The notes under the pieces were generated by a model, which was given only the letters and a program-made list of their open reading frames with translations, did no database searches and was not told the DNA's origin. DNA of 64,000 nt from an uncultured Alphaproteobacteria bacterium (GTDB lineage: Bacteria; Pseudomonadota; Alphaproteobacteria; RF32; CAG-239), in NCBI GenBank assembly GCA_944393725.1, contig CALYBC010000009.1:210099-274098 (forward strand). Reading direction: 5' to 3'. Positions within the stretch are counted from its first letter, which is position 1. Every line of letters begins with the position of its first letter. This document shows positions 2,306-62,432 of this stretch, in pieces. The translations under genes and the position numbers were made by a program.

Positions 2306-2983
2306 ATGTCAAATCAAAATAGATTTAAGCTATTTAAACGCAACAATACTAACTTAAAAAAAATGATAACGGCAATCTGGGAGTTTTGGATTAGTAAAAC
2401 CGGAGCTTTTCTGTTGGCAGTTTCGGCCATTGTTATCGGATGGTATCAGTTTTATATTAATCGTCCGATTTTAAAATATGATACCGAAACAATGCCTTTT
2501 ATATCTTCGCTAAATGAAAATGATTATAAAGTTACAGTTCACGGCAAAGAATATAAGGATCTATACCAAACCCGCGTTACCCTGCAAAATAAAGGTGCTT
2601 CCGCTTTGTCGGGAAAAGATGTTTCCAAAATAGGTCACAACCCGATAAGAATTGTTATTCCTCAAGACGCAAAAATGGTACATTATACTTTAGATAAAAC
2701 CATAACAACTCCCGATATAACCTCGAATCTGATAAACGCCGACGGTGATTTGGTAATCGAATTTGATTTTCTTAACTCCGATTATCAAATCGGAGCTTCA
2801 ATCCTGCACGAAAATCCAAATGCCAAATTTAAAGTGGAAGGAAGTGCACTTAATGTTAACTCCATTGGTAGAGAATGGAGTGATAAGCAAATTAAGTATT
2901 GGACCTTTTGGATTATGGGCGGACTTTATCTGATTTTAATGGCGTTATATCTGTTTAACCATTGGCATCCAAAAAAGAATTAA
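2306..2983 (+). CDS. Hypothetical membrane protein (one N-terminal and one C-terminal TM segment)
   Basis: The ORF track starts at TTG 2237. ATG 2306 is preceded by GAGGGTG and gives MSNQNRF. No recognisable family. The 3' end overlaps the convergent lysozyme-domain gene by 4 nt. Confidence 0.45.
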   Translation: MSNQNRFKLFKRNNTNLKKMITAIWEFWISKTGAFLLAVSAIVIGWYQFYINRPILKYDTETMPFISSLNENDYKVTVHGKEYKDLYQTRVTLQNKGASALSGKDVSKIGHNPIRIVIPQDAKMVHYTLDKTITTPDITSNLINADGDLVIEFDFLNSDYQIGASILHENPNAKFKVEGSALNVNSIGREWSDKQIKYWTFWIMGGLYLILMALYLFNHWHPKKN

Positions 2984-4602
2984 CTTTTGGCATTATTTGC
3001 GGCCATTTTCATAGCTTGATAAAAAGTTATCGTCTTATTGGCTTGGGTTTGGTTTTGGTTGCCCAAGTTCTTGGTCGCTGTTAATTTACCATCGACAACT
3101 TCATAACCATATTCCCGAATCAAGTCGGTTTTTATTGCTTCTGGCATCTGACCAAGAATACTTTCTTCTATTGATGAGGCAATAAACTTATCGGCTTTGG
3201 CTTTTACATCTGCCGATGAAAGCGTTTTGAAGGTTCCATCCGGATTTTCCACGGGATCCCTTCCGCCTTCGTAATATTTCATATCCGGACTGCCGACAAT
3301 ACTCCTCTTTAGTGTAAGGAGATACGGTATATCCTCGGAAAGGACAAAACCTTCAAAACCATGACGGTCAATCAGACCATAACTGCGCTCGCCTCCTACA
3401 CTGCGATATAATGATAATGCTTCTCTGATTTTTTCGGCGGGAGCTTGGGAATTAACCTGTTTGAAAAATTCGGTGTTTTTGGCATTTCCCTCATCAGTAT
3501 TGTATACAAACATGCAAACCGCAGCAATTTTGCTCGGAGAAAGGTCGCAATTTATATGTTTAAACTGCGGATATACATATTTTTCTAAATGGGCAACAAC
3601 ATCTTCATATGCTTTTTCTTTGGTGGTTGTATCACCATTTTTAACTTTGCGGCCGTCAGCATAGCGTCTGGAACCGTAACCGATGGTCAGCTCTCCGGCT
3701 TGACACTTATAGGCAGTACTTCTATAACTCTCAAACGCAGCAATCAGACATACTATTTCTTTTTCGTGCTCTTTGGCTGTGCTGTAATTGTTGAAATAGG
3801 CTTGGTTTTGAGTTTCGCGTTCGGCAAAAAAATTCTGCATTTCTTGTTTTTCTTGCGCAATAGCTTCTTTTTGTGCCTTCATTATTTTTGAAGCTTCGGC
3901 AATACGCGGAGTTACTTTGACCGCGCCTAAAGTCGAAGCTACGATAAGAGCCTTAAGAGCGCCTTTGCGAATGTAGGGTATTGCTTTATCTTGTATAAAT
4001 CCGTGAACCCGATTTTTGGCAAAATGATATTTTTTATTAAGCAGATGATATGTTGCCGCCGGCAAGGCTCCTAAAGCTCCGCTCAAAACATGCGCTGTTT
4101 GTTTTGCGGTAAATTTAACTCCTTTACCAACGGCTTTAGAAGTTTCTTTCAAACAATGAAGATAATGAAGCTTATCAAGTTTTGATAAATAATCTTTATT
4201 CATGCTTATGGCAAAGTTCTTGTCGGGATGTTCTTTTCTTGCCCGTAGAGCCTTTTTTACAGCCTTTGAATAAACAATCTTAATACTGTCTTTAGTACTA
4301 TTTATGATAGCTTCATCAGACAAGCCCTTTTGGGTCTGTTCAAAAGACGGTATTATATATACATTTCCTGATTTAATTTCTCTTGGATAACAAGGGGCAT
4401 CCGGATGTTTGGCATTGTAATCTTCATATTTTTTAAAACGTTTATCCATAAAATGCAACAAATCATCAACGAATATATCGCTGTTACCTTTGTATTTTAC
4501 CGGAATTGGCAGTCTAAGTCCCAAAACATCGCAATATTTGGGAGTGGAATAGCCATATTCGTCAATTACCTGCTTTTGATATTCTTTGAAGTTCATTACC
4601 AA
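2980..4602 (-). CDS. Large protein with a GH24 (phage T4-type) lysozyme domain
   Basis: AAFESYRSTAYKCQAGELTIGYG aligns position for position with T4 lysozyme E11...D20...T26 (here E-x8-C-x5-T). About 290 aa lie N-terminal to it, with no obvious signal peptide but internal hydrophobic stretches. About 150 aa lie C-terminal. Confidence 0.7.
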   Translation of the reverse strand: MVMNFKEYQKQVIDEYGYSTPKYCDVLGLRLPIPVKYKGNSDIFVDDLLHFMDKRFKKYEDYNAKHPDAPCYPREIKSGNVYIIPSFEQTQKGLSDEAIINSTKDSIKIVYSKAVKKALRARKEHPDKNFAISMNKDYLSKLDKLHYLHCLKETSKAVGKGVKFTAKQTAHVLSGALGALPAATYHLLNKKYHFAKNRVHGFIQDKAIPYIRKGALKALIVASTLGAVKVTPRIAEASKIMKAQKEAIAQEKQEMQNFFAERETQNQAYFNNYSTAKEHEKEIVCLIAAFESYRSTAYKCQAGELTIGYGSRRYADGRKVKNGDTTTKEKAYEDVVAHLEKYVYPQFKHINCDLSPSKIAAVCMFVYNTDEGNAKNTEFFKQVNSQAPAEKIREALSLYRSVGGERSYGLIDRHGFEGFVLSEDIPYLLTLKRSIVGSPDMKYYEGGRDPVENPDGTFKTLSSADVKAKADKFIASSIEESILGQMPEAIKTDLIREYGYEVVDGKLTATKNLGNQNQTQANKTITFYQAMKMAANNAKS

Positions 4603-54729: not shown

Positions 54730-56172
54730 ATGAACACAAAAAATTCAATTAAGGAGATTGCTATCTCCATCGTAGCCCCGGTTGTTAAAATGTTTCCAAG
54801 CTGGGCAATGAAACACACCCTCAGAGTGAACGACTATGCCGATTATTTTCAGCTCTCGCATAAAAAAGAGATGGAAATATTAAGCAAGCTTCCCCAGAGC
54901 GAATGGGTGAAGGCTCGGCTTTGGTCGCCGGAGACGAGGATTGCCTGTCTCAAATCACGAGACAAATATCATTATTTTTTAGACGAGATTTTTTCCTCTA
55001 AAGAATTCTGGGCGGCTTATAACAATGAGCTGACTCGCGAAAGAGCCGTTAGGTGCAAAACCTACACGCTGTCTGGCAGCGAAGTTATAAAGGTCTGCAA
55101 CGAAACATGCGGATTTGTAGACTTGTTGTGGTATAAACAACCACACAGCTTTACGGCTGAGGTTGTAAGTAAACTGAGCACAGAGGCAGTTGGGCGTCTT
55201 ATTATTTTTCTCAACGCTGATAAAGCGTATGAGATCGCAGCAAAGCTAGACATGTTGTTGCTGCAAAATATAAAAAAGGCGAAAAGAAACGCTGAGGGAG
55301 CAGCCAAGGTATTGAGTATGCTCCTCATGGATTATACTGCGTATTATCCGTCCATCGAACCGGAGGAGCTGATGAAGCTTGAAGGCTTCAACCAGTGGCT
55401 GGCTAAAGCTGATATTATGGTGGTGACAGATAAATTGTCTACCTACCTAAAAAATTTGGGTAGATATGATTTGTTGCTGCAGTTGCTCGTTAGAGCCTTG
55501 AAGAAAAGGCAATTCGGCATAGAAAAGGATATCTTTTCCTTGCTGCCTAAGAGCTGTAATTGCTATCAAACGGCTGTAACCAAGATGGTCGAAGCCGGGA
55601 TAGCAATGCCTAAAGATTTTGCATTTTTATCTGACGATAAGATAAAAGAGCAAAATTTGAAGCTCTGCCAAATCGATCACCGATTAGATATGATTCCGGA
55701 AATGGATTACAAATATCTATCGGAAAATCAGAAAGAGTGGTTGCTCTATAGCTTGGCTCGAGCAGGGAAACTAAGCCAGCATTTGCTTGATACCGCTTCT
55801 CCAAAAGTCAAGCAAAATTTGCTTGACATTTTGGAGGAAGAAGCACAAGTTGCTTGGTTCAAAGAACTTGTTGTACTGGAACAGAATGGTCGAAAATATG
55901 AAAATATTCAGACCGTCAAAAATCTGGCACATATAAGTGCCAGATTGCAGGCTGCAACGCTGTCTTTTGCCGGTTGGCAGTATGTTTTTGCCGAAAACGG
56001 TTTCTATGACTCCGAGTACTCCTTGGAGTTGTTAAAACGAGGAACCGAAGAGGCGGTAAAGATTTTTGCTGAGAAGCAAGGCTTGACAGCTGAGCAGTAT
56101 GAAGCTCTGCTGATCGGCAATAATAAAGCCTTGGCTCCGGAGCTGAGGAGATATATAAAGAAAAATGTTTAA
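54730..56172 (+). CDS. Hypothetical all-helical protein
   Basis: 480-aa ORF with its own terminator. No motif recognised. Confidence 0.5.
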   Translation: MNTKNSIKEIAISIVAPVVKMFPSWAMKHTLRVNDYADYFQLSHKKEMEILSKLPQSEWVKARLWSPETRIACLKSRDKYHYFLDEIFSSKEFWAAYNNELTRERAVRCKTYTLSGSEVIKVCNETCGFVDLLWYKQPHSFTAEVVSKLSTEAVGRLIIFLNADKAYEIAAKLDMLLLQNIKKAKRNAEGAAKVLSMLLMDYTAYYPSIEPEELMKLEGFNQWLAKADIMVVTDKLSTYLKNLGRYDLLLQLLVRALKKRQFGIEKDIFSLLPKSCNCYQTAVTKMVEAGIAMPKDFAFLSDDKIKEQNLKLCQIDHRLDMIPEMDYKYLSENQKEWLLYSLARAGKLSQHLLDTASPKVKQNLLDILEEEAQVAWFKELVVLEQNGRKYENIQTVKNLAHISARLQAATLSFAGWQYVFAENGFYDSEYSLELLKRGTEEAVKIFAEKQGLTAEQYEALLIGNNKALAPELRRYIKKNV

Positions 56173-56315: not shown

Positions 56316-57617
56316 ATGACCGCTCGTACACTGCAAGGATTTATGGAACTGTTACCGCAGGAGCAAATCGTATTTAATCATATGAAGTCAGTCATTGCTC
56401 ATACCTACGAGCTTTTTGGCTTTGCACCGTTGGATACTCCGGTTTTGGAATTGGCCGAAGTTTTGCTCTCAAAATCCGGCGGAGAGACCGAAAAACAAAT
56501 CTATGAATTCAAAAAAGGCGATACCGATATTGCCATGCGTTTTGACTTAACCGTGCCGCTGGCTAAGTATATTGCTCTTTATAACAACGACCTCACCTTC
56601 CCGTTCAAACGCTACCAAATCGGTAAAGTTTATCGCGGTGAACGTCCGCAAAAAGGTCGGTTCAGAGAATTTTACCAATGCGATATCGATATAATCGACC
56701 GCGACGAACTCAATATCGTTTATGATGCCGAAGTGTTGGCGGTTATCTATACCGTGTTCAGCAAACTAAATTTGCCGAAATTCAAAATCTATATCAATAA
56801 CCGCAAGTTGCTCGGCGGCTTTTTGCAGAGCTTGGATATTGCCGATAAGACCGTTGAGGTTTTGCGTCTGGTCGATAAAATCAAAAAAATCCCCGAAGAA
56901 GCTTTCTTGGATGAATTGAGCGATTTGGGGCTTGCCGAAGACAAAAAACAAAAATTGTTAAAATTTATCAAAATCAACGGACTAAACAACGAAATTATCG
57001 CACAACTTGAAAATTTACACATCGAAAACGAAAATTTTGTTGCCGGTCTTGATGAGCTCAAAACAGTTATTGCACAAGCTCAAAACCTTGGCTTGCCGGC
57101 TGAAAATATTCAGATTGATTTGAGCATAACTCGCGGATTGGATTATTATACCGGTACGGTGTATGAAACATTTTTTGATGACTACCCGCAATTTGGTTCG
57201 GTCTGCTCAGGCGGACGCTACGATAATCTATCATCGGTATTTATGGACAAGAAGTTCCCCGGAGTGGGTATTTCCATCGGTCTGACCCGTTTGTTTGACC
57301 AACTTAGGGCTAACAACCTATTGCCCATAAAAGAGCTTACACCAAACAAGGCCCTGATTATTCCGCAAGATGAAGCTTTTGTGAATGAGGCGGTAAATCT
57401 GGCCGGTAAGCTCAGATTACAAAATATCGCCGTTGATGTTATGTATAGACAGTGCAAGTTTAAGAAAAAAATGGAATATGCCAATAAAATCGGCGTGCCG
57501 TTCCTGATTATTATCGGCGAAGAAGAAGCTAAGTCAGGAATGTTTGCTTGCAAAAATATGACCTCGGGCGAGCAAAAAACGCTTAAGCTTGATGAGCTGA
57601 TTGAAACCTTAAAATAA
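56316..57617 (+). CDS. hisS: Histidine--tRNA ligase
   Basis: Class II motifs (RYQIGKVYRGERPQKGRFREF, GGRYD, RGLDYYTG) and a C-terminal anticodon-binding domain. ATG 56316 (MTARTLQGF) is preferred over TTG 56277. Confidence 0.92.
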   Translation: MTARTLQGFMELLPQEQIVFNHMKSVIAHTYELFGFAPLDTPVLELAEVLLSKSGGETEKQIYEFKKGDTDIAMRFDLTVPLAKYIALYNNDLTFPFKRYQIGKVYRGERPQKGRFREFYQCDIDIIDRDELNIVYDAEVLAVIYTVFSKLNLPKFKIYINNRKLLGGFLQSLDIADKTVEVLRLVDKIKKIPEEAFLDELSDLGLAEDKKQKLLKFIKINGLNNEIIAQLENLHIENENFVAGLDELKTVIAQAQNLGLPAENIQIDLSITRGLDYYTGTVYETFFDDYPQFGSVCSGGRYDNLSSVFMDKKFPGVGISIGLTRLFDQLRANNLLPIKELTPNKALIIPQDEAFVNEAVNLAGKLRLQNIAVDVMYRQCKFKKKMEYANKIGVPFLIIIGEEEAKSGMFACKNMTSGEQKTLKLDELIETLK

Positions 57618-57632
57618 TATTATAGTCAGAAC

Positions 57633-57667
57633 AAACCGCCCTTTTTATTTATAAAAGCGGGCGGTTT
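57633..57667. terminator. Bidirectional terminator between hisS and the island
   Basis: AAACCGCCC-loop-GGGCGGTTT followed by T5. Confidence 0.75.
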
Positions 57668-57678
57668 TTGATTATCTG

Positions 57679-58029
57679 TTATATATGCTCAAGCATGTTC
57701 CATAAGGCTATCAACCATGGAGATAATAAAATAAATTTGGCTAGTCTGGGATAATTGCGCATATTGCTCAATGCCAGCAAAAAAATTAGGACTGAAAACT
57801 TAAGATCTATTTTTACTCCCTCAAGATAAAGCTCTTGATTCTGATAATTCCATGCACTCATCGTTGCTTGTGCACCCCAAATTGGATCGTCCTTAGCTGG
57901 CGGATAAAAATATGTTCCCAATAATAACAGAGGCTCCAACATATAAAACGCAACATACCACCTAAAAGGTTTGATAAATGTTTTAATTGCTTGCAGCTTA
58001 TCGCCTAACTTAATCTTATTCATTACCAT
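57679..58029 (-). CDS. Small membrane protein, candidate immunity partner of the upstream toxin domain
   Basis: 116 aa with roughly 3 hydrophobic helices. Its ATG overlaps the TGG-TAA end of the toxin-domain frame (ATGGTAATG). Confidence 0.5.
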   Translation of the reverse strand: MVMNKIKLGDKLQAIKTFIKPFRWYVAFYMLEPLLLLGTYFYPPAKDDPIWGAQATMSAWNYQNQELYLEGVKIDLKFSVLIFLLALSNMRNYPRLAKFILLSPWLIALWNMLEHI

Positions 58030-58802
58030 TTCTCCTTGGTATATTTTACGTAAATCGGAACACTATCTTGGCAATTATCTAGATATTTGCTTAATTTACC
58101 TGTTTGCCATGGTATGTCAATACATCCGGCAGAACCCTTTTCAATACCTCCATGAATTGAAAATCCGTCTCGTCCATAAGTATTGGTATTATTATCAGGT
58201 GTAAGCCAAACTCTTCTTAGTCCCCAAGCAGGGGTAGAACCCCGCCAATTCCCCTGTTTTATAATACCTGCAACTGCATTTATCGGATCAATTGTTTGTC
58301 TCTGGTTCTGTGATGCATAATATGTGCCTTCAGGTATGGGGCCTAAATCTTTTACTGATTGATATTTTTTAGCCTAATAATTTGGATTTCCTGACATTGC
58401 ATCTAATGTATGTTGATAGCTGGAATTTCCTCCATTAAGCTCTAAGTTTTGACCATCAAATGTCATATAACAATTTGCATTATCATTGTTAGGCCTTGAT
58501 AGTGGTTTGGAAAAGCTGTTTTGACTATCCCAATCATTGCTTAGCAACTTGTTTGCCAGTGCATTGGCGGAATTTGAGCTGATATTGGCGACGGAATTTA
58601 CATCCTTACTCAACTCGGCAGATAGACGGTTCATCTCGTCTAAATCAAAACGAGTTTGAAGCTCGTCTCTTAAACTCATATTGCTATAGTCTATCGTATC
58701 CGGTGATTGATATTTTGATTGCAGTGATTGCAATTTTCTCTCTTCCCTTCCCCTCTTTAGTTGCTCAAGCCGTTCTTGAAAAGTTGTGTTGTAGTTTGTC
58801 AT
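58023..58802 (-). pseudogene. Polymorphic-toxin-like gene: conserved N-terminal module plus Tlde1/DUF2778-like (YkuD-fold) domain, interrupted by an in-frame TAG at 58374-58376
   Basis: My own translation gives 142 codons, TAG, then 116 further sense codons with no start codon (GPIPEGTYY...RDGFSIHGGIEKGSAGCID). The stop falls inside the predicted domain. Confidence 0.6.
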
Positions 58803-58950
58803 TTCTTGATGTTTCCTTCCTTATAAAATATTTCTTTACCGATAGTCCGCAATATCATATAGAACATTTTTTGAACTTTGTAAAGTCCTACACTCTACTT
58901 GTCAACAACTTTATTGTGCTTATACTGCTCCTTACACTAAAAAGTTGAAT
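58614..58950. repeat. A-repeat copy 2: promoter, leader and first ~63 codons
   Basis: Direct repeat of 61630-61966 (offset 3016 bp). High identity upstream and over the N-terminal codons, diverging downstream. Confidence 0.85.
58877..58905 (-). promoter_or_regulatory. Sigma70-like promoter TTGACA-N17-TACAAA
   Basis: Read on the minus strand about 70 nt upstream of ATG 58802. Conserved in the paralogous copy at 61893-61921. Confidence 0.45.
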
Positions 58951-58952
58951 CA

Positions 58953-59498
58953 CTATCCTTGTTGAGGGGTTACGGCCCGAATAATCTCGTTTTGATGTGA
59001 CGATACCCAATCTATACCCCAAAGAGCCAGAAAAATACAAACCAATACATAAACATAGGGATACCTTAGCAAAGGACTATGTAAGTCGGCATTTCTATTG
59101 GGCGATGTCGGATAAAAAAACATTAGCAAAACGAGTAATGTATATAGATGAAAAACAATTTTTGATATCGTATCTAAGATACCTATATCATCCAGACCAA
59201 ATGGCTCAAATATCGTGGTAAAAAAGAAGCAAATTGTTGCTAATATTATTATCAATGTGCCTTTGATATTGATGTCGCGACACCTCTTTTGAAATGCTAT
59301 CAACATTATATAGCCATAAATAAAATTTATTATAATGAGTGAAACATCAAATTTTTTCAAAACACTGTCAACAACAGAAGATATTGCCGTAGCAGAAAAA
59401 AATTGTGAACCGTCTATAAACCCTTTGAATGAAAAAAAATATCGCAGAGATAGCTCTTTGGTGCGATTTATTATATGTTGTATGTTTGTGTCTGACAT
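58953..59498 (-). CDS. DUF805-like integral membrane protein (copy B2)
   Basis: FSFKGFIDGSQFF and ...AFQKRCRDINIKG resemble the DUF805 pattern (FSFKGRI...RRLHD.G.SG). It differs from copy B1 at 2 of 181 residues. Confidence 0.6.
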   Translation of the reverse strand: MSDTNIQHIINRTKELSLRYFFSFKGFIDGSQFFSATAISSVVDSVLKKFDVSLIIINFIYGYIMLIAFQKRCRDINIKGTLIIILATICFFFTTIFEPFGLDDIGILDTISKIVFHLYTLLVLLMFFYPTSPNRNADLHSPLLRYPYVYVLVCIFLALWGIDWVSSHQNEIIRAVTPQQG

Positions 59499-59565
59499 TG
59501 ATATTTCCTTTTTTTAGGATTGGGGCAGATATTATTATTTAGATAATACCAACCCCTATCTGCCT
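58953..59565. repeat. B-repeat copy 2 (gene plus ~70-bp leader)
   Basis: Direct repeat of 60472-61082 (offset 1519 bp). Confidence 0.9.
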
Positions 59566-59571
59566 ACTTTA

Positions 59572-59649
59572 TTATTCTATTTTGTAACAGCCGTGTTCTT
59601 TATCCCATTTCCAGCAATCCGCACGGCAACGATGCTCGTTATAATCCCA
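59572..59649. repeat. C-repeat copy 2 (78 bp, 3' end of the gene)
   Basis: 3 mismatches versus 59997-60074. Confidence 0.9.
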
Positions 59650-59970
59650 TACTCCCGAGCCACTGTCAAAGCATCTGTCAATGGCATGTCGTTCAACTAT
59701 AGGCGGATAATAAAAAAACATTAAAAGATAAATAATAAATGATATTGCAAATATTATGTATGACACTTTTCTTATGCTTGCAAAAAATGTAGCAGCAAAA
59801 GAAATTAAACATATTACCATTACAATACCATAAATTATAAAGCTATATTCGGTAATTGAGAATGCTATGAAAAAGTCAACGGCAAAAAAGACTAATAACA
59901 ACAGAAATATTGCTATTTTTAGTGCTGATTTTGTGGCTTTGAATATAATATTTACAATATTTTTATGCAT
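59572..59970 (-). CDS. Small membrane protein with a Cys/Trp-rich C-terminal motif (copy C2)
   Basis: ATG 59970 follows GAAGGT. The protein starts MHKNIVNI, has roughly 3 TM helices, and ends WDYNEHRCRADCWKWDKEHGCYKIE. The track's longer 60054 start overlaps C1 out of frame. Confidence 0.5.
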   Translation of the reverse strand: MHKNIVNIIFKATKSALKIAIFLLLLVFFAVDFFIAFSITEYSFIIYGIVMVICLISFAATFFASIRKVSYIIFAISFIIYLLMFFYYPPIVERHAIDRCFDSGSGVWDYNEHRCRADCWKWDKEHGCYKIE

Positions 59971-59996
59971 ATTAATACCTTCGTGATTGTAAGAAA

Positions 59997-60074
59997 TTAT
60001 TCTATTTTGTAACAGCCGTGTTCTGTATCCCATTTCCAGCAATCCGTCCGGCAACGATGCTCGTTATAATCCCA
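59997..60074. repeat. C-repeat copy 1
   Basis: Partner of 59572-59649. Confidence 0.9.
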
Positions 60075-60410
60075 AACTTTAGAACTATCTATACAATCTG
60101 TATAAGCCATATATTGTTTATATTGCGGAAATATGCCATAGCTTTTCTCAATACATAATAATGATAATATCCAGATTATCATCATAATTTTTTTCTTAAC
60201 AAACAAACTTGACAAACACACCAAGCTTAAAATTACTGACAAACATAACTTAAACTTAAGAATATTTTGCAAACTACTGTCTTTAATTGATGAGATATCA
60301 AACCATAGCCAAAAATTGCCTAATATATAAAGGAAGAATAATATACAAAACATTGCACTTATTCCGATAGAAAAAAACTTGATGGCTTTTTGTAAAATTA
60401 TTTTATGCAT
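59997..60410 (-). CDS. Small membrane protein with a Cys/Trp-rich C-terminal motif (copy C1)
   Basis: ATG 60410 follows AAGGAAG. The protein starts MHKIILQK and ends WDYNEHRCRTDCWKWDTEHGCYKIE. Confidence 0.5.
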   Translation of the reverse strand: MHKIILQKAIKFFSIGISAMFCILFFLYILGNFWLWFDISSIKDSSLQNILKFKLCLSVILSLVCLSSLFVKKKIMMIIWILSLLCIEKSYGIFPQYKQYMAYTDCIDSSKVWDYNEHRCRTDCWKWDTEHGCYKIE

Positions 60411-60471
60411 ACTATCTTCCTTTATATCGTTTTTCATATTTTTTGTGCTGTCTGTTATAATTTTACCAATC

Positions 60472-61017
60472 CTATCCTTGTTGAGGGGTTACGGCCTGAA
60501 TAATCTCGTTTTGATGTGACGATACCCAATCTATACCCCAAAGAGCCAGAAAAATACAAACCAATACATAAACATAGGGATACCTTAGCAAAGGACTATG
60601 TAAATCGGCATTTCTGTTGGGCGATGTCGGATAAAAAAACATTAACAAAACAAGTAATGTATATAAATGGAAAACAATTTTTGATATCGTATCTAAGATA
60701 CCTATATCATCCAGACCAAATGGCTCAAATATTGTGGTAAAAAAGAAGCAAATCGTTGCTAATATTATTATCAATGTACCTTTGATATTGATGTCGCGGC
60801 ACCTCTTTTGAAATGCTATCAGCATTATATAGCCATAAATAAAATTTATTATAATGAGCGAAACATCAAATTTTTTCAAAACACTGTCAACAACAGAAGA
60901 GATTGCCGTAGCCGAAAAAAATTGTGAACCGTCTATAAAGCCTTTGAATGAAAAAAAATATCGCAGAGATAGCTCTTTGGTGCGATTTCTTATATGTTGT
61001 ATGTTTGTGTCTGACAT
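60472..61017 (-). CDS. DUF805-like integral membrane protein (copy B1)
   Basis: See copy B2. Located immediately downstream of the 241-aa family member. Confidence 0.6.
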   Translation of the reverse strand: MSDTNIQHIRNRTKELSLRYFFSFKGFIDGSQFFSATAISSVVDSVLKKFDVSLIIINFIYGYIMLIAFQKRCRDINIKGTLIIILATICFFFTTIFEPFGLDDIGILDTISKIVFHLYTLLVLLMFFYPTSPNRNADLHSPLLRYPYVYVLVCIFLALWGIDWVSSHQNEIIQAVTPQQG

Positions 61018-61082
61018 TGATATTTCCTTTTTTAGGATTGGGGCAGATATTATTTAGATAGTACCCACCCCTATATGCCTAA
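60472..61082. repeat. B-repeat copy 1
   Basis: Partner of 58953-59565. Confidence 0.9.
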
Positions 61083-61092
61083 TATATTATTT

Positions 61093-61818
61093 TCATTTTT
61101 TCAACCAATTTGATAAACCAAATTGATTTAAAAGACCCGAAAAAGCACCTGCTGATTTGGCATCGGCCCAGGCTTTTGCTCCGTATTCTATTACATCATT
61201 AGCTATCTTGTTGGCTCTGCCTAGGCCTGCCGCTTCGGCTTGCCTTTGCATTTGTTGCTTGTTTTTGTTATAATAATCACCCAGATATTTTGAACTTAGT
61301 TTGTCAAAATACCCGTTTGTAGCTCCGTTAACAGCCGTCAACATACCGCTTTCAATTCCTTCACCAAACCCTTGCAATGCTGCTGCGGCTATCTCCCATG
61401 CATGACTTTTGGGTACATAACTTGGCATTGGTTTGCCGGTTACCGTGTAAAAGCTGTTTTGATTATTAGGCTTGTATGCCCTAAGAGAGCTTACAATAGC
61501 TTCATTATCTTTGTCTTCTTGAGATATTGGTTTGTAAAATCCAGTTTGATTGGCAAAAGTATTGGGTTGCAATGTACCAACCATGGTATTATCGGAGTTT
61601 TTTCCAATATTATTGTTTCCAGAGCCTAACTTGGCGGAAAGACGGTTCATCTCGTCTAAATCAAAACGAGTTTGAAGTTCTTCCCTCAAGCTCATGTTGC
61701 CATAATTTATCTTTTCGGGATTTTGATATTTTGCTTGCAGTGATTGCAATTTTCTCTCTTCCCTTCCCCTCTTTAGTTGCTCAAGCCGTTCTTGAAAAGT
61801 TGTGTTGTTGTTTGTCAT
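61093..61818 (-). CDS. Polymorphic-toxin-like protein: same N-terminal module as 58802, unrelated C-terminal domain of unknown function
   Basis: MTNNNTTFQERLEQLKRGREERKLQSLQ... is shared with the 58802 gene. Similarity fades after about residue 105. No signal peptide. Confidence 0.55.
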   Translation of the reverse strand: MTNNNTTFQERLEQLKRGREERKLQSLQAKYQNPEKINYGNMSLREELQTRFDLDEMNRLSAKLGSGNNNIGKNSDNTMVGTLQPNTFANQTGFYKPISQEDKDNEAIVSSLRAYKPNNQNSFYTVTGKPMPSYVPKSHAWEIAAAALQGFGEGIESGMLTAVNGATNGYFDKLSSKYLGDYYNKNKQQMQRQAEAAGLGRANKIANDVIEYGAKAWADAKSAGAFSGLLNQFGLSNWLKK

Positions 61819-61966
61819 TTCTTGATGTTTCCTTCCTTATAAAATATTTCTTTACCGATAGTCCGCAACATTATATAGAACATTTTTTGAACTTTGTAAA
61901 GTCCTACACTCTACTTATCAACAACTTTATTGTGCTTACACCACTACTTGCACTAAAAAGTTGAAC
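61630..61966. repeat. A-repeat copy 1
   Basis: Partner of 58614-58950. Confidence 0.85.
61893..61921 (-). promoter_or_regulatory. Sigma70-like promoter TTGATA-N17-TACAAA
   Basis: Paralogous to the 58877-58905 element at the same 3016-bp offset. Confidence 0.4.
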
Positions 61967-61981
61967 CGCCCTTTATAAATA

Positions 61982-62002
61982 AGCGGGCTATCGCTAGCCC
62001 GC
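61982..62002 (-). terminator. Terminator hairpin downstream of rplS
   Basis: AGCGGGCTA-TCG-CTAGCCCGCT perfect palindrome followed on the minus strand by a T-rich stretch. Confidence 0.6.
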
Positions 62003-62036
62003 TCGGTGTCTAAAAAACATCACAACTTATGCGAAA

Positions 62037-62432
62037 CTACTCGCCTTTGCTCTCGTCTTTGGCTTTGGCTGTAGCTGTCAAATCGTCGGCAATACGAGCC
62101 GAACGACCACGCAATGCACGCAAGAAATACAATTTGGCACGACGAACTTTACCAATACGAGCAACCTCAATCTTGGCTACATTCGGAGAGTATAGAGGAA
62201 ATACTCTTTCTACACCCTCACCAAACGAAATTTTGCGTACGGTGAACGAAGAATTCAAACCATCGTTTTTGCGAGCAATGCAAACGCCTTCGTATACCTG
62301 AATACGTTCTCTGTCGCCTTCTTTTACTTTGGTATGAACTTTAAGAGTATCACCGGGCTTAAAGTCGGGAAGATTTTTACCTTCGAGCAACTTGTCCATC
62401 TGCTCTTTTTCAATGTTTTCAATAATGTTCAT
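62037..62432 (-). CDS. rplS: 50S ribosomal protein L19
   Basis: [11 protein letters not shown]... aligns with the L19 N-terminus. [22 protein letters not shown] and RRAKLYFLR motifs, plus a short acidic/Ala C-terminal extension. Confidence 0.93.

Follow-up and report, generated by a model that had tools for sequence, protein, structure and literature searches.

The interrupted gene and its Tlde1 domain

We analysed a stretch of 64,000 nucleotides (the window) from an uncultured alphaproteobacterium (NCBI GenBank assembly GCA_944393725.1, contig CALYBC010000009.1, positions 210,099 to 274,098). The subject here is one locus on its minus strand, where a gene for a toxin of the Tlde1 family (Pfam PF10908, Tlde1_dom, formerly DUF2778) is interrupted by an in-frame TAG and is directly followed by a small membrane-protein gene, its candidate immunity gene. 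The structure was modelled with AlphaFold2 (AF2) on P0001, an intact ortholog that is 88% identical, and not on the window sequence, and all fold results given for this toxin refer to P0001. The features of the interrupted gene and its neighbour are as follows.

58377..58802, minus strand: truncated open reading frame (ORF) of 142 codons, all that is still translated of the toxin gene; N-terminal module, linker and first ~35 residues of the Tlde1 domain
58593..58802, minus strand: helical module at the N-terminus, residues 1-70; shared with the neighbouring paralog toxin A (61609-61818) at 80% identity
58488..58592, minus strand: variable linker, predicted to be disordered, residues 71-105; predicted local distance difference test score (pLDDT) <50 at 72-79 and 88-107; most divergent part between alleles
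58026..58487, minus strand: Tlde1/DUF2778 toxin domain of L,D-transpeptidase fold, residues 106-259, from PF10908, Foldseek and a PDB profile; interrupted at codon 143
58374..58376, minus strand: premature stop TAG, codon 143, from CAG (Gln143) by one C-to-T transition, as judged from allele comparison
58152..58154, minus strand: codon of His217, the predicted catalytic His (H121 of Tlde1a), from the sequence, the Tlde1a alignment and the motif in PMC9638812; after the stop and untranslated
58122..58124, minus strand: codon of Cys227, the predicted catalytic Cys (C131 of Tlde1a), within S-A-G-C-I, from the sequence, the Tlde1a alignment and PMC9638812; after the stop and untranslated
58023..58025, minus strand: original toxin stop TAA, overlapping the start codon of the candidate immunity gene as TAATG
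57679..58023, minus strand: candidate immunity gene, intact, for a small hydrophobic membrane protein of 114 amino acids (aa); from its ATG at 58021-58023, position and conservation

Direct translation of the minus strand from 58802 to 58023 gives an ATG and 141 further sense codons, the TAG, 116 sense codons and the TAA. Since neither ATG nor GTG nor TTG occurs in frame across the 116 codons after the TAG, where only ATT and ATA are present, the ORF list shows nothing past the 142-aa ORF 58374-58802. The window has 39% GC, so that stops are expected at 6.6% of random codons, and its base composition gives a probability of about 4e-4 that 116 successive codons of a given frame contain no stop. 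Thus, the open frame is not due to chance. A first-pass annotation, made from the sequence letters, had described this layout and given the amino-acid string, and both were exact on retranslation. It had also held that the downstream frame goes unlisted for want of a start codon and that so long a run is improbable, and the codon scan and the computed probability agree with it. The exact 142-aa product is found on 3-4 contigs in public collections.

The conceptual product of 259 aa, in which the TAG is replaced by Gln, scores 42.0 bits against PF10908 (gathering cutoff 30.1), and the match spans residues 132-230 and so crosses the TAG. The 116 downstream residues alone score 39.1 bits against the same cutoff. 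In a search of 5.8 billion proteins the repaired product has 224 homologs, nearly all with a precomputed PF10908 match, and these include the intact full-length proteins P0001 (259 aa, 88% identity) and P0002 (260 aa, 70%). NCBIfam gave no meaningful match for the toxin, the candidate immunity protein or the other proteins of the cassette. When the PDB was searched with a profile of 39 family members, the sole match was Salmonella Tlde1a (7UMA/7UO3/7UO8), with a marginal E of 0.014. This alignment pairs TFDGQ, the Gln at the stop site, IPEGxY, WGxxR, R-GF-IH and GCI. The AF2 model of P0001 has a pLDDT of ~90 over domain residues 110-178 and 190-259, and its top three Foldseek matches in the PDB are the Tlde1a structures 7uo8/7uma/7uo3 (E 4e-9 to 4e-8, probability 1.0), with a TM-score on the target of ~0.6. 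They are followed by L,D-transpeptidases of M. tuberculosis (LdtMt1/Mt2), A. baumannii and others.

The active site can be placed by alignment. The motif I-H217-GGIEKG-S224-A-G-C227-I of the repaired product aligns with I-H121-DSTKGY-S-H-G-C131-I of Tlde1a, and R211, H217, G226 and C227 fall on R115, H121, G130 and C131. H217 and C227 are invariant in 39 homologs. For Tlde1a, the family motif has been given as the L,D-transpeptidase signature HXX14-17-(S/T)HGCh, with C131 catalytic and R115 and G130 conserved (PMC9638812). Because R211, H217, G226 and C227 are all encoded 3' of the TAG, the 142-aa product is without an active site and cannot be an active enzyme. It lacks ~75% of the catalytic domain, which begins at about C111 (106-111); of the modelled strands, 112-115, 119-123 and 132-134 precede the stop position. 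The first-pass annotation had the stop bisecting one domain. The TAG does fall inside the domain, but it does not leave halves, as the first ~35 residues are cut from the remaining ~115.

The repaired 259-aa product genuinely belongs to the Tlde1/DUF2778 family by profile, motif and fold, and is a toxin in its predicted function, as had been suspected from its YkuD-type sequence pattern: PF10908 is above its cutoff, and Tlde1a is the sole match in the PDB profile search and leads the Foldseek matches. The window copy has no uninterrupted frame and is a pseudogene of the Tlde1 family, not a functional member.

Tlde1a (STM14_0336, formerly Tae5; S. Typhimurium; PDB 7UMA, 7UO3, 7UO8) is an L,D-carboxypeptidase/transpeptidase effector of a type VI secretion system (T6SS). 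The two share a PF10908 score above the gathering cutoff, the fold, the 10-residue spacing of His and Cys, and a small immunity gene (here a candidate) that is directly adjacent. However, their identity is only ~25%, in line with the marginal profile E value, and the window motif is S-A-G-C-I rather than S-H-G-C-I. The Tlde1a chain has 174 residues, whereas the window toxin carries an N-terminal extension of ~105 aa made up of helical module and linker. In addition, the immunity candidate here lies downstream and is a membrane protein without DUF2195, whereas Tldi1a is encoded upstream and is a periplasmic DUF2195 protein. There are no T6SS genes near the window copy, which is also a pseudogene. 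Such differences from Tlde1a are unsurprising for polymorphic toxins. With canonical YkuD L,D-transpeptidases (LdtMt1/LdtMt2, PDB 4JMN, 5D7H) the domain shares the catalytic fold and the predicted His/Cys chemistry (Foldseek E 5e-4 to 1e-2), but identity is 10-16% and the TM-score only ~0.3. Unlike those enzymes it has no peptidoglycan-binding or Ig-like domains and no signal peptide, and its context is one of toxin and immunity rather than housekeeping.

Alleles of the toxin gene and the retained neighbour

We retrieved the DNA encoding the nearest relatives and aligned it (loci L001-L007 and L065-L067). In the genome-contig search of related genomes, the best matches are 87-88% identical at the protein level. 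The site reads TAT-TAG-GCT in the window, in L002 and L067, which come from two samples of project ONAT22-1, and in L065 and L066 (BRZ_QD and BRZ_QK). It reads TAT-CAG-GCT in L001, L003, L004, L005, L006 and L007, so that orthologous loci do carry a sense codon here. Gln143 is invariant in 39/39 aligned homologs, and Salmonella Tlde1a also has Gln at this position. Thus, the TAG is derived, through a single C-to-T transition.

The TAG allele is present in at least four other assemblies from two projects (BRZ_QD, BRZ_QK and the ONAT22-1 samples SAMEA6814483 and SAMEA6814484), and CAG and TAG alleles are both found in different samples of ONAT22-1. The contigs with the TAG differ nearby, by Y4N in L002, by an immunity gene that is ~6% divergent in L067 and by another downstream haplotype in L066, and the allele occurs in three different cassette arrangements. 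Since it is shared by several assemblies, two projects and different arrangements, the TAG is a segregating allele and is not private to this genome. The earlier idea of a very recent single-base nonsense mutation is therefore supported as to the single base, and "very recent" has to be qualified.

The toxin gene has been lost repeatedly. Seven of ten alleles with at least 93% DNA identity are inactivated, through 3-4 independent lesions. L001 has CAA→TAA at codon 49 (Q49), L004 has a frameshifting deletion of 44 bp inside the domain (codons ~177-191), and L066 has the TAG plus a change of S215 to TGA just before the catalytic His, on a contig of 2.7x coverage. L003, L006 and L005 look intact; the contig of L005 ends within the 5' part of the gene. 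Across genomes of related uncultured Alphaproteobacteria, about 15 of the 60 Tlde1 matches either contain stops or frameshifts or consist of a C-terminal fragment. The gut samples behind the related metagenome-assembled genomes are from humans, ruminants, horses and other animals.

The downstream part of the window gene, compared with intact alleles, has a ratio of non-synonymous to synonymous substitution rates (dN/dS) of 0.11-0.28; against L003 there are 5 synonymous and 2 non-synonymous differences. On these comparisons, the signature of purifying selection downstream of the TAG is apparently inherited from a functional ancestor. The toxin genes of the window, L065 and L067 are 100% identical throughout, on both sides of the TAG, and L066 differs downstream of it by recombination. 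Because the TAG copies are identical upstream as well as downstream, their open frame probably reflects youth, and it carries no signal of selection.

An intact ortholog of the neighbouring gene, of 114-116 aa, adjoins every allele, dead or alive, and its dN/dS between alleles is 0.12-0.33, which indicates purifying selection. The 114-aa protein, which is hydrophobic, probably has two or three segments in the membrane. Public collections contain its exact sequence in a 19-member cluster, and it belongs to no Pfam or NCBIfam family and does not match DUF2195. A Shine-Dalgarno sequence, AAGGAG at 58032-58037, lies 8 nt upstream of the ATG. From position and conservation, we presume that this is the cognate immunity protein, now orphaned. 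In the DUF2778 superfamily, immunity proteins of the Tai7 type, one of three branches, are transmembrane, and orphan immunity genes after toxin loss have been reported in Salmonella (both bioRxiv 10.1101/2020.02.18.954545). The pattern of retained immunity is thus known. As with the orphan Tai6 of Salmonella, the immunity gene has outlived the toxin; here, though, the toxin remnant is almost intact, whereas there the toxin is absent. Two candidate signals flank the gene.

58093..58120, minus strand: sigma-70-like promoter match TTGACA-16-TAAATT, 10/12; inside the 3' end of the toxin gene, ~70 nt upstream of the immunity start; a consensus match only
57631..57668, minus strand: terminator-like hairpin with a CCGCCC/GGGCGG stem and T-rich tail; after the immunity gene and before the convergent hisS

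The promoter match may serve the immunity gene as an internal promoter; sigma-70-like matches in the region are no commoner than in shuffled sequence. The hairpin has a long loop and folds with -18.8 kcal/mol (z = -4.4), and 0/200 shuffles fold as well. It came from direct folding, and a pattern-based terminator scan gave no match. An Rfam match to snoR83, a eukaryotic snoRNA, over the same hairpin is below threshold (28.7 bits, cutoff 40) and was dismissed as chance.

Explanations for the premature stop

We consider it very probable that the locus is a pseudogenised polymorphic antibacterial toxin with a retained orphan immunity gene, and not a case of recoding. The ancestor would have been a protein of 259 aa with an N-terminal module of ~65 aa and two helices, a disordered linker and a C-terminal Tlde1 domain. 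By homology to Tlde1a, the domain would have acted as an L,D-carboxypeptidase/transpeptidase with a His/Cys site in the periplasm of the target cell, and would have trimmed or exchanged the fourth residue of peptidoglycan stem peptides. One C-to-T transition changed CAG to TAG at the invariant Gln143, so that translation ends after 142 residues. The immunity gene, which retains a Shine-Dalgarno sequence and perhaps has an internal promoter, remains intact under purifying selection, and as an orphan it would protect against kin or neighbours still armed with the toxin. That the downstream frame is open would be due not to translation but to the youth of the lesion at the local rate of substitution. 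The population pattern suggests retention of immunity together with a toxin loss that is either tolerated or favoured. Decay of a toxin with retention of its immunity gene is well documented, and the route here is an ordinary one.

The first-pass annotation had left readthrough or recoding of the TAG as an alternative to a nonsense mutation. Since tRNA-Gln is near-cognate to UAG, which is a single base away from CAG, and since the lost residue is an invariant Gln, misreading of the stop as Gln would regenerate the ancestral protein exactly; programmed or maintained readthrough, most likely as Gln by near-cognate tRNA-Gln, would then yield a small dose of full-length toxin from a "dimmed" allele. 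The spread of the TAG over at least five assemblies and three cassette arrangements, with the downstream frame undamaged in most, can be counted in its favour. If it were true, the lineage would keep a trickle of toxin and selection on the immunity gene and avoid the cost of full expression, and the spread over samples and arrangements with an undamaged frame would reflect selection rather than youth. However, the 150 nt around and after the stop fold worse than shuffled sequence (minimum free energy z = +1.26; 186/200 shuffles fold at least as well), and so show no stable or conserved stimulatory structure. An Rfam scan of 57400-62100 with E up to 1 gave no recoding element near the TAG. No suppressor tRNA is encoded in the 64-kb window, where the only tRNAs are Val-TAC and Thr-CGT. 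TAG terminates 3/43 long ORFs in the window, among them the 432-aa UDP-glucose dehydrogenase (Ugd), which has all three of its Pfam domains complete. Because it closes complete genes such as Ugd, TAG is an ordinary stop in this genome, and reassignment of the codon was rejected on the same ground. The stop is also not conserved: it is confined to one sub-lineage, with CAG in six alleles and Gln in 39/39 homologs. The sister alleles were killed by unrelated lesions that are beyond such rescue, namely the TAA at codon 49 and the 44-bp frameshift, and one TAG allele, L066, has the additional TGA just before the catalytic His. Finally, since the TAG copies are 100% identical over the whole toxin gene, their downstream frame points to youth and carries no signal of selection. 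The alternative is thus unsupported. That the TAG allele is a low-dose allele maintained by rare Gln misreading has no positive support, the lesions of the sister alleles argue against it, and we regard it as very improbable, if the least so among the three rivals considered here.

Slightly more improbable, in our estimate, is a split in which both pieces are functional, with the 142-aa product having a role of its own, for example in occupying a secretion apparatus or as an adaptor, and a free Tlde1 core made downstream from a non-canonical start. The 142-aa ORF does retain its promoter region, its start codon and a well-folded two-helix N-terminal module, and the family includes short proteins of 145-200 aa with a single domain. 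Yet the 116 codons after the TAG offer no canonical start, and no Shine-Dalgarno-like sequence was seen there. The downstream piece is also without the first three beta strands of the domain, including the invariant C111, F115, G117, L122, S137 and G138, and the L001 and L004 lesions lie elsewhere (codon 49; codons ~177-191), which is not the pattern of a selected split. An artefact of sequencing or assembly, in which a true CAG was turned into TAG by an error in the consensus or by the mixing of population variants into a chimera, we hold to be the most improbable of all. The sequence is evidently a metagenome assembly, exact copies of the window proteins are found only in metagenome-derived contigs of ENA/NCBI, and CAG and TAG alleles occur in different samples of the one project ONAT22-1. 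Against this, independent assemblies of different samples in two projects gave the TAG on at least four other contigs, some of which differ nearby; identical errors recurring at one base are implausible.

Some observations weigh against a decayed toxin with a retained immunity gene. The 116 downstream codons are undamaged in the window, L065 and L067, and this alone cannot separate a young pseudogene from a gene that is still selected. The sole TAG allele with a second stop, L066, lies on the contig of 2.7x coverage. On that contig (L066 1-4434; ERZ24773508, BRZ_QK) trmD is also split, into two ORFs of 67 and 149 aa. For this reason, some of the apparent L066 lesions, possibly including S215*, could be sequencing errors. 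Low-level natural misreading of UAG by near-cognate tRNA-Gln may occur and would restore the wild-type residue. The immunity role of the 114-aa protein is presumed from position and conservation alone. Finally, neither the window nor the neighbourhoods of the relatives' loci contain T6SS or other secretion genes that would account for delivery.

A single base change has thus made a Tlde1 domain invisible to ORF callers, and we suggest that the locus be annotated as a toxin pseudogene with an orphan immunity gene. With 7/10 alleles dead and the immunity gene under purifying selection, it offers a clean case in nature of "disarm but keep the shield" dynamics among uncultured gut Alphaproteobacteria. 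It has no bearing on the biology of recoding. The part most worth following is the N-terminal module, which is fused to Tlde1, to prokaryotic serum amyloid A (SAA) and to at least three other C-terminal modules.

The toxin island and its surroundings

Between rplS and hisS lies a small polymorphic-toxin island, and the Tlde1 pseudogene forms one of its cassettes. On the minus strand the order is rplS, toxin A, a 181-aa protein with four transmembrane (TM) segments, two Cys-tailed three-TM proteins, a second copy of the 181-aa gene, the Tlde1 pseudogene and the immunity gene. Besides the genes listed above, the island contains the following.

61093..61818, minus strand: toxin A, an intact paralog of 241 aa with the same N-terminal module and an unrelated helix-rich C-terminal module; from the ORF list and alignment
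58612..58911, minus strand: repeat D2, comprising the 5' region and coding DNA of the N-terminal module; copy at 61628-61927, 92% identical over 300 nt
58953..61017, minus strand: four membrane-protein genes between the two toxins, from ORFs and hydrophobic segments; their number varies between strains
58953-59498 and 60472-61017, minus strand: two near-identical 181-aa four-TM proteins; 97% DNA identity, 1519 bp apart
59572-60054 and 59997-60437, minus strand: two paralogous Cys-tailed three-TM proteins with the common tail VWDYNEHRCRxDCWKWDxEHGCYKIE; the listed ORFs overlap by 58 nt

The Tlde1 gene and toxin A diverge after the shared 70 residues. In the P0001 model, the N-terminal module of ~65 aa consists of two long helices (7-30 and 44-64) with pLDDT 80-90. 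It is rare: an exhaustive HMMER search found it in only 37 representative clusters among 1.84e9 proteins, and in our searches it is confined to this gut alphaproteobacterial group. At least five unrelated C-terminal modules come after it in the relatives, including Tlde1, prokaryotic SAA and at least three without known identity. Pfam assigns SAA to 5, Tlde1_dom to 1 and YkuD to 1 of the 37 representatives, and gives no match in these proteins to Rhs, PAAR, MIX, LXG, filamentous haemagglutinin or a similar trafficking domain. An SAA module is also present at L004 619-1215 (P0130), and the best E among the SAA matches is 2e-19. These tips fit the published view of prokaryotic SAA domains as effector modules of polymorphic toxins (PMC12419801). 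From position and conservation, we presume that the N-terminal module is probably a secretion or trafficking handle for the toxins at this locus, and it may mark a compact family of polymorphic toxins in gut Alphaproteobacteria.

Toxin A belongs to no family in Pfam or NCBIfam. Its last ~100 residues are rich in helix and in Gly and Ala (LQGFGEGIESGMLTAVNGATNGYF...AEAAGLGRANKIAN...), and it is possibly membrane-active. Its AF2 model is unusable, with a mean pLDDT of 39 from an alignment of 7 sequences. Pfam gave nothing for the membrane proteins of 181, 146 and 160 aa, and the four in the cassette are probable immunity or accessory genes. The 181-aa gene is present in one or two copies by strain (L066 vs L065), and this difference suggests unequal recombination between repeats. 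Repeat D2 is likely to be a substrate for cassette recombination. The arrangements vary. L067 has rplS, the Tlde1 pseudogene and the immunity gene, and L066 has rplS, toxin A, the 181-aa gene and the pseudogene; both are recombinants. In L005, an N-terminus like that of toxin A is joined to a Tlde1 tip, and this hybrid is direct evidence of module swapping.

On sequence grounds, then, the locus has the organization that defines polymorphic toxins, with a constant N-terminal module, variable C-terminal toxins and small membrane proteins after each toxin. It resembles polymorphic toxin systems with displaced or orphan cassettes (Zhang et al. 2012, Biol Direct), such as orphan modules of the contact-dependent inhibition (CDI)/Rhs type, in its constant N-terminal module, its swappable C-terminal tips and the immunity-like genes that follow each. 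It also resembles them in the variable number and order of cassettes, repeats placed for swapping, mosaic alleles and C-terminal fragments in relatives. The proteins here differ from known polymorphic toxins in being very small (200-260 aa) and in having no recognisable trafficking domain. DUF2778 is likewise found as the C-terminal tip of larger polymorphic toxins in its superfamily (bioRxiv 10.1101/2020.02.18.954545); there the carrier is Rhs, whereas here it is a small helical module.

We found no genes for a T6SS or another secretion system in the 64-kb window or within 10 kb of the relatives' loci, and the label "T6SS effector" of Tlde1a is therefore not transferable. DUF2778 genes are also found near genes of type I, II, IV and V secretion systems (T1SS, T2SS, T4SS, T5SS; bioRxiv 10.1101/2020.02.18.954545). 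The other large ORFs of the window encode Mfd, RecG, Lon, DsbD, AccC, FabF, a Mur ligase and glycosyltransferases.

Elsewhere in the window, an ORF of 480 aa at 54730-56172 on the plus strand, between asd and hisS, belongs to no Pfam family, and L004 and L065 have a gene of 470-480 aa, also without a Pfam match, at the same position. At 2980-4602 on the minus strand, among ordinary chromosomal genes, lies a gene for a 540-aa protein with a long N-terminal region and a Phage_lysozyme domain at residues 289-414 (E 2e-19). Distant relatives of Tlde1 also occur in phage-like structural modules of gut Alphaproteobacteria, a setting that we judge not applicable to the window locus. These are L068 10001-11092 (P0039), where the Tlde1 gene is upstream of capsid and lysozyme genes, and L070 6099-6683 (P0108), where it comes directly after the gene for the large terminase. 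Some members of the Tlde1 family may thus be phage cargo or virion-associated cell-wall enzymes.

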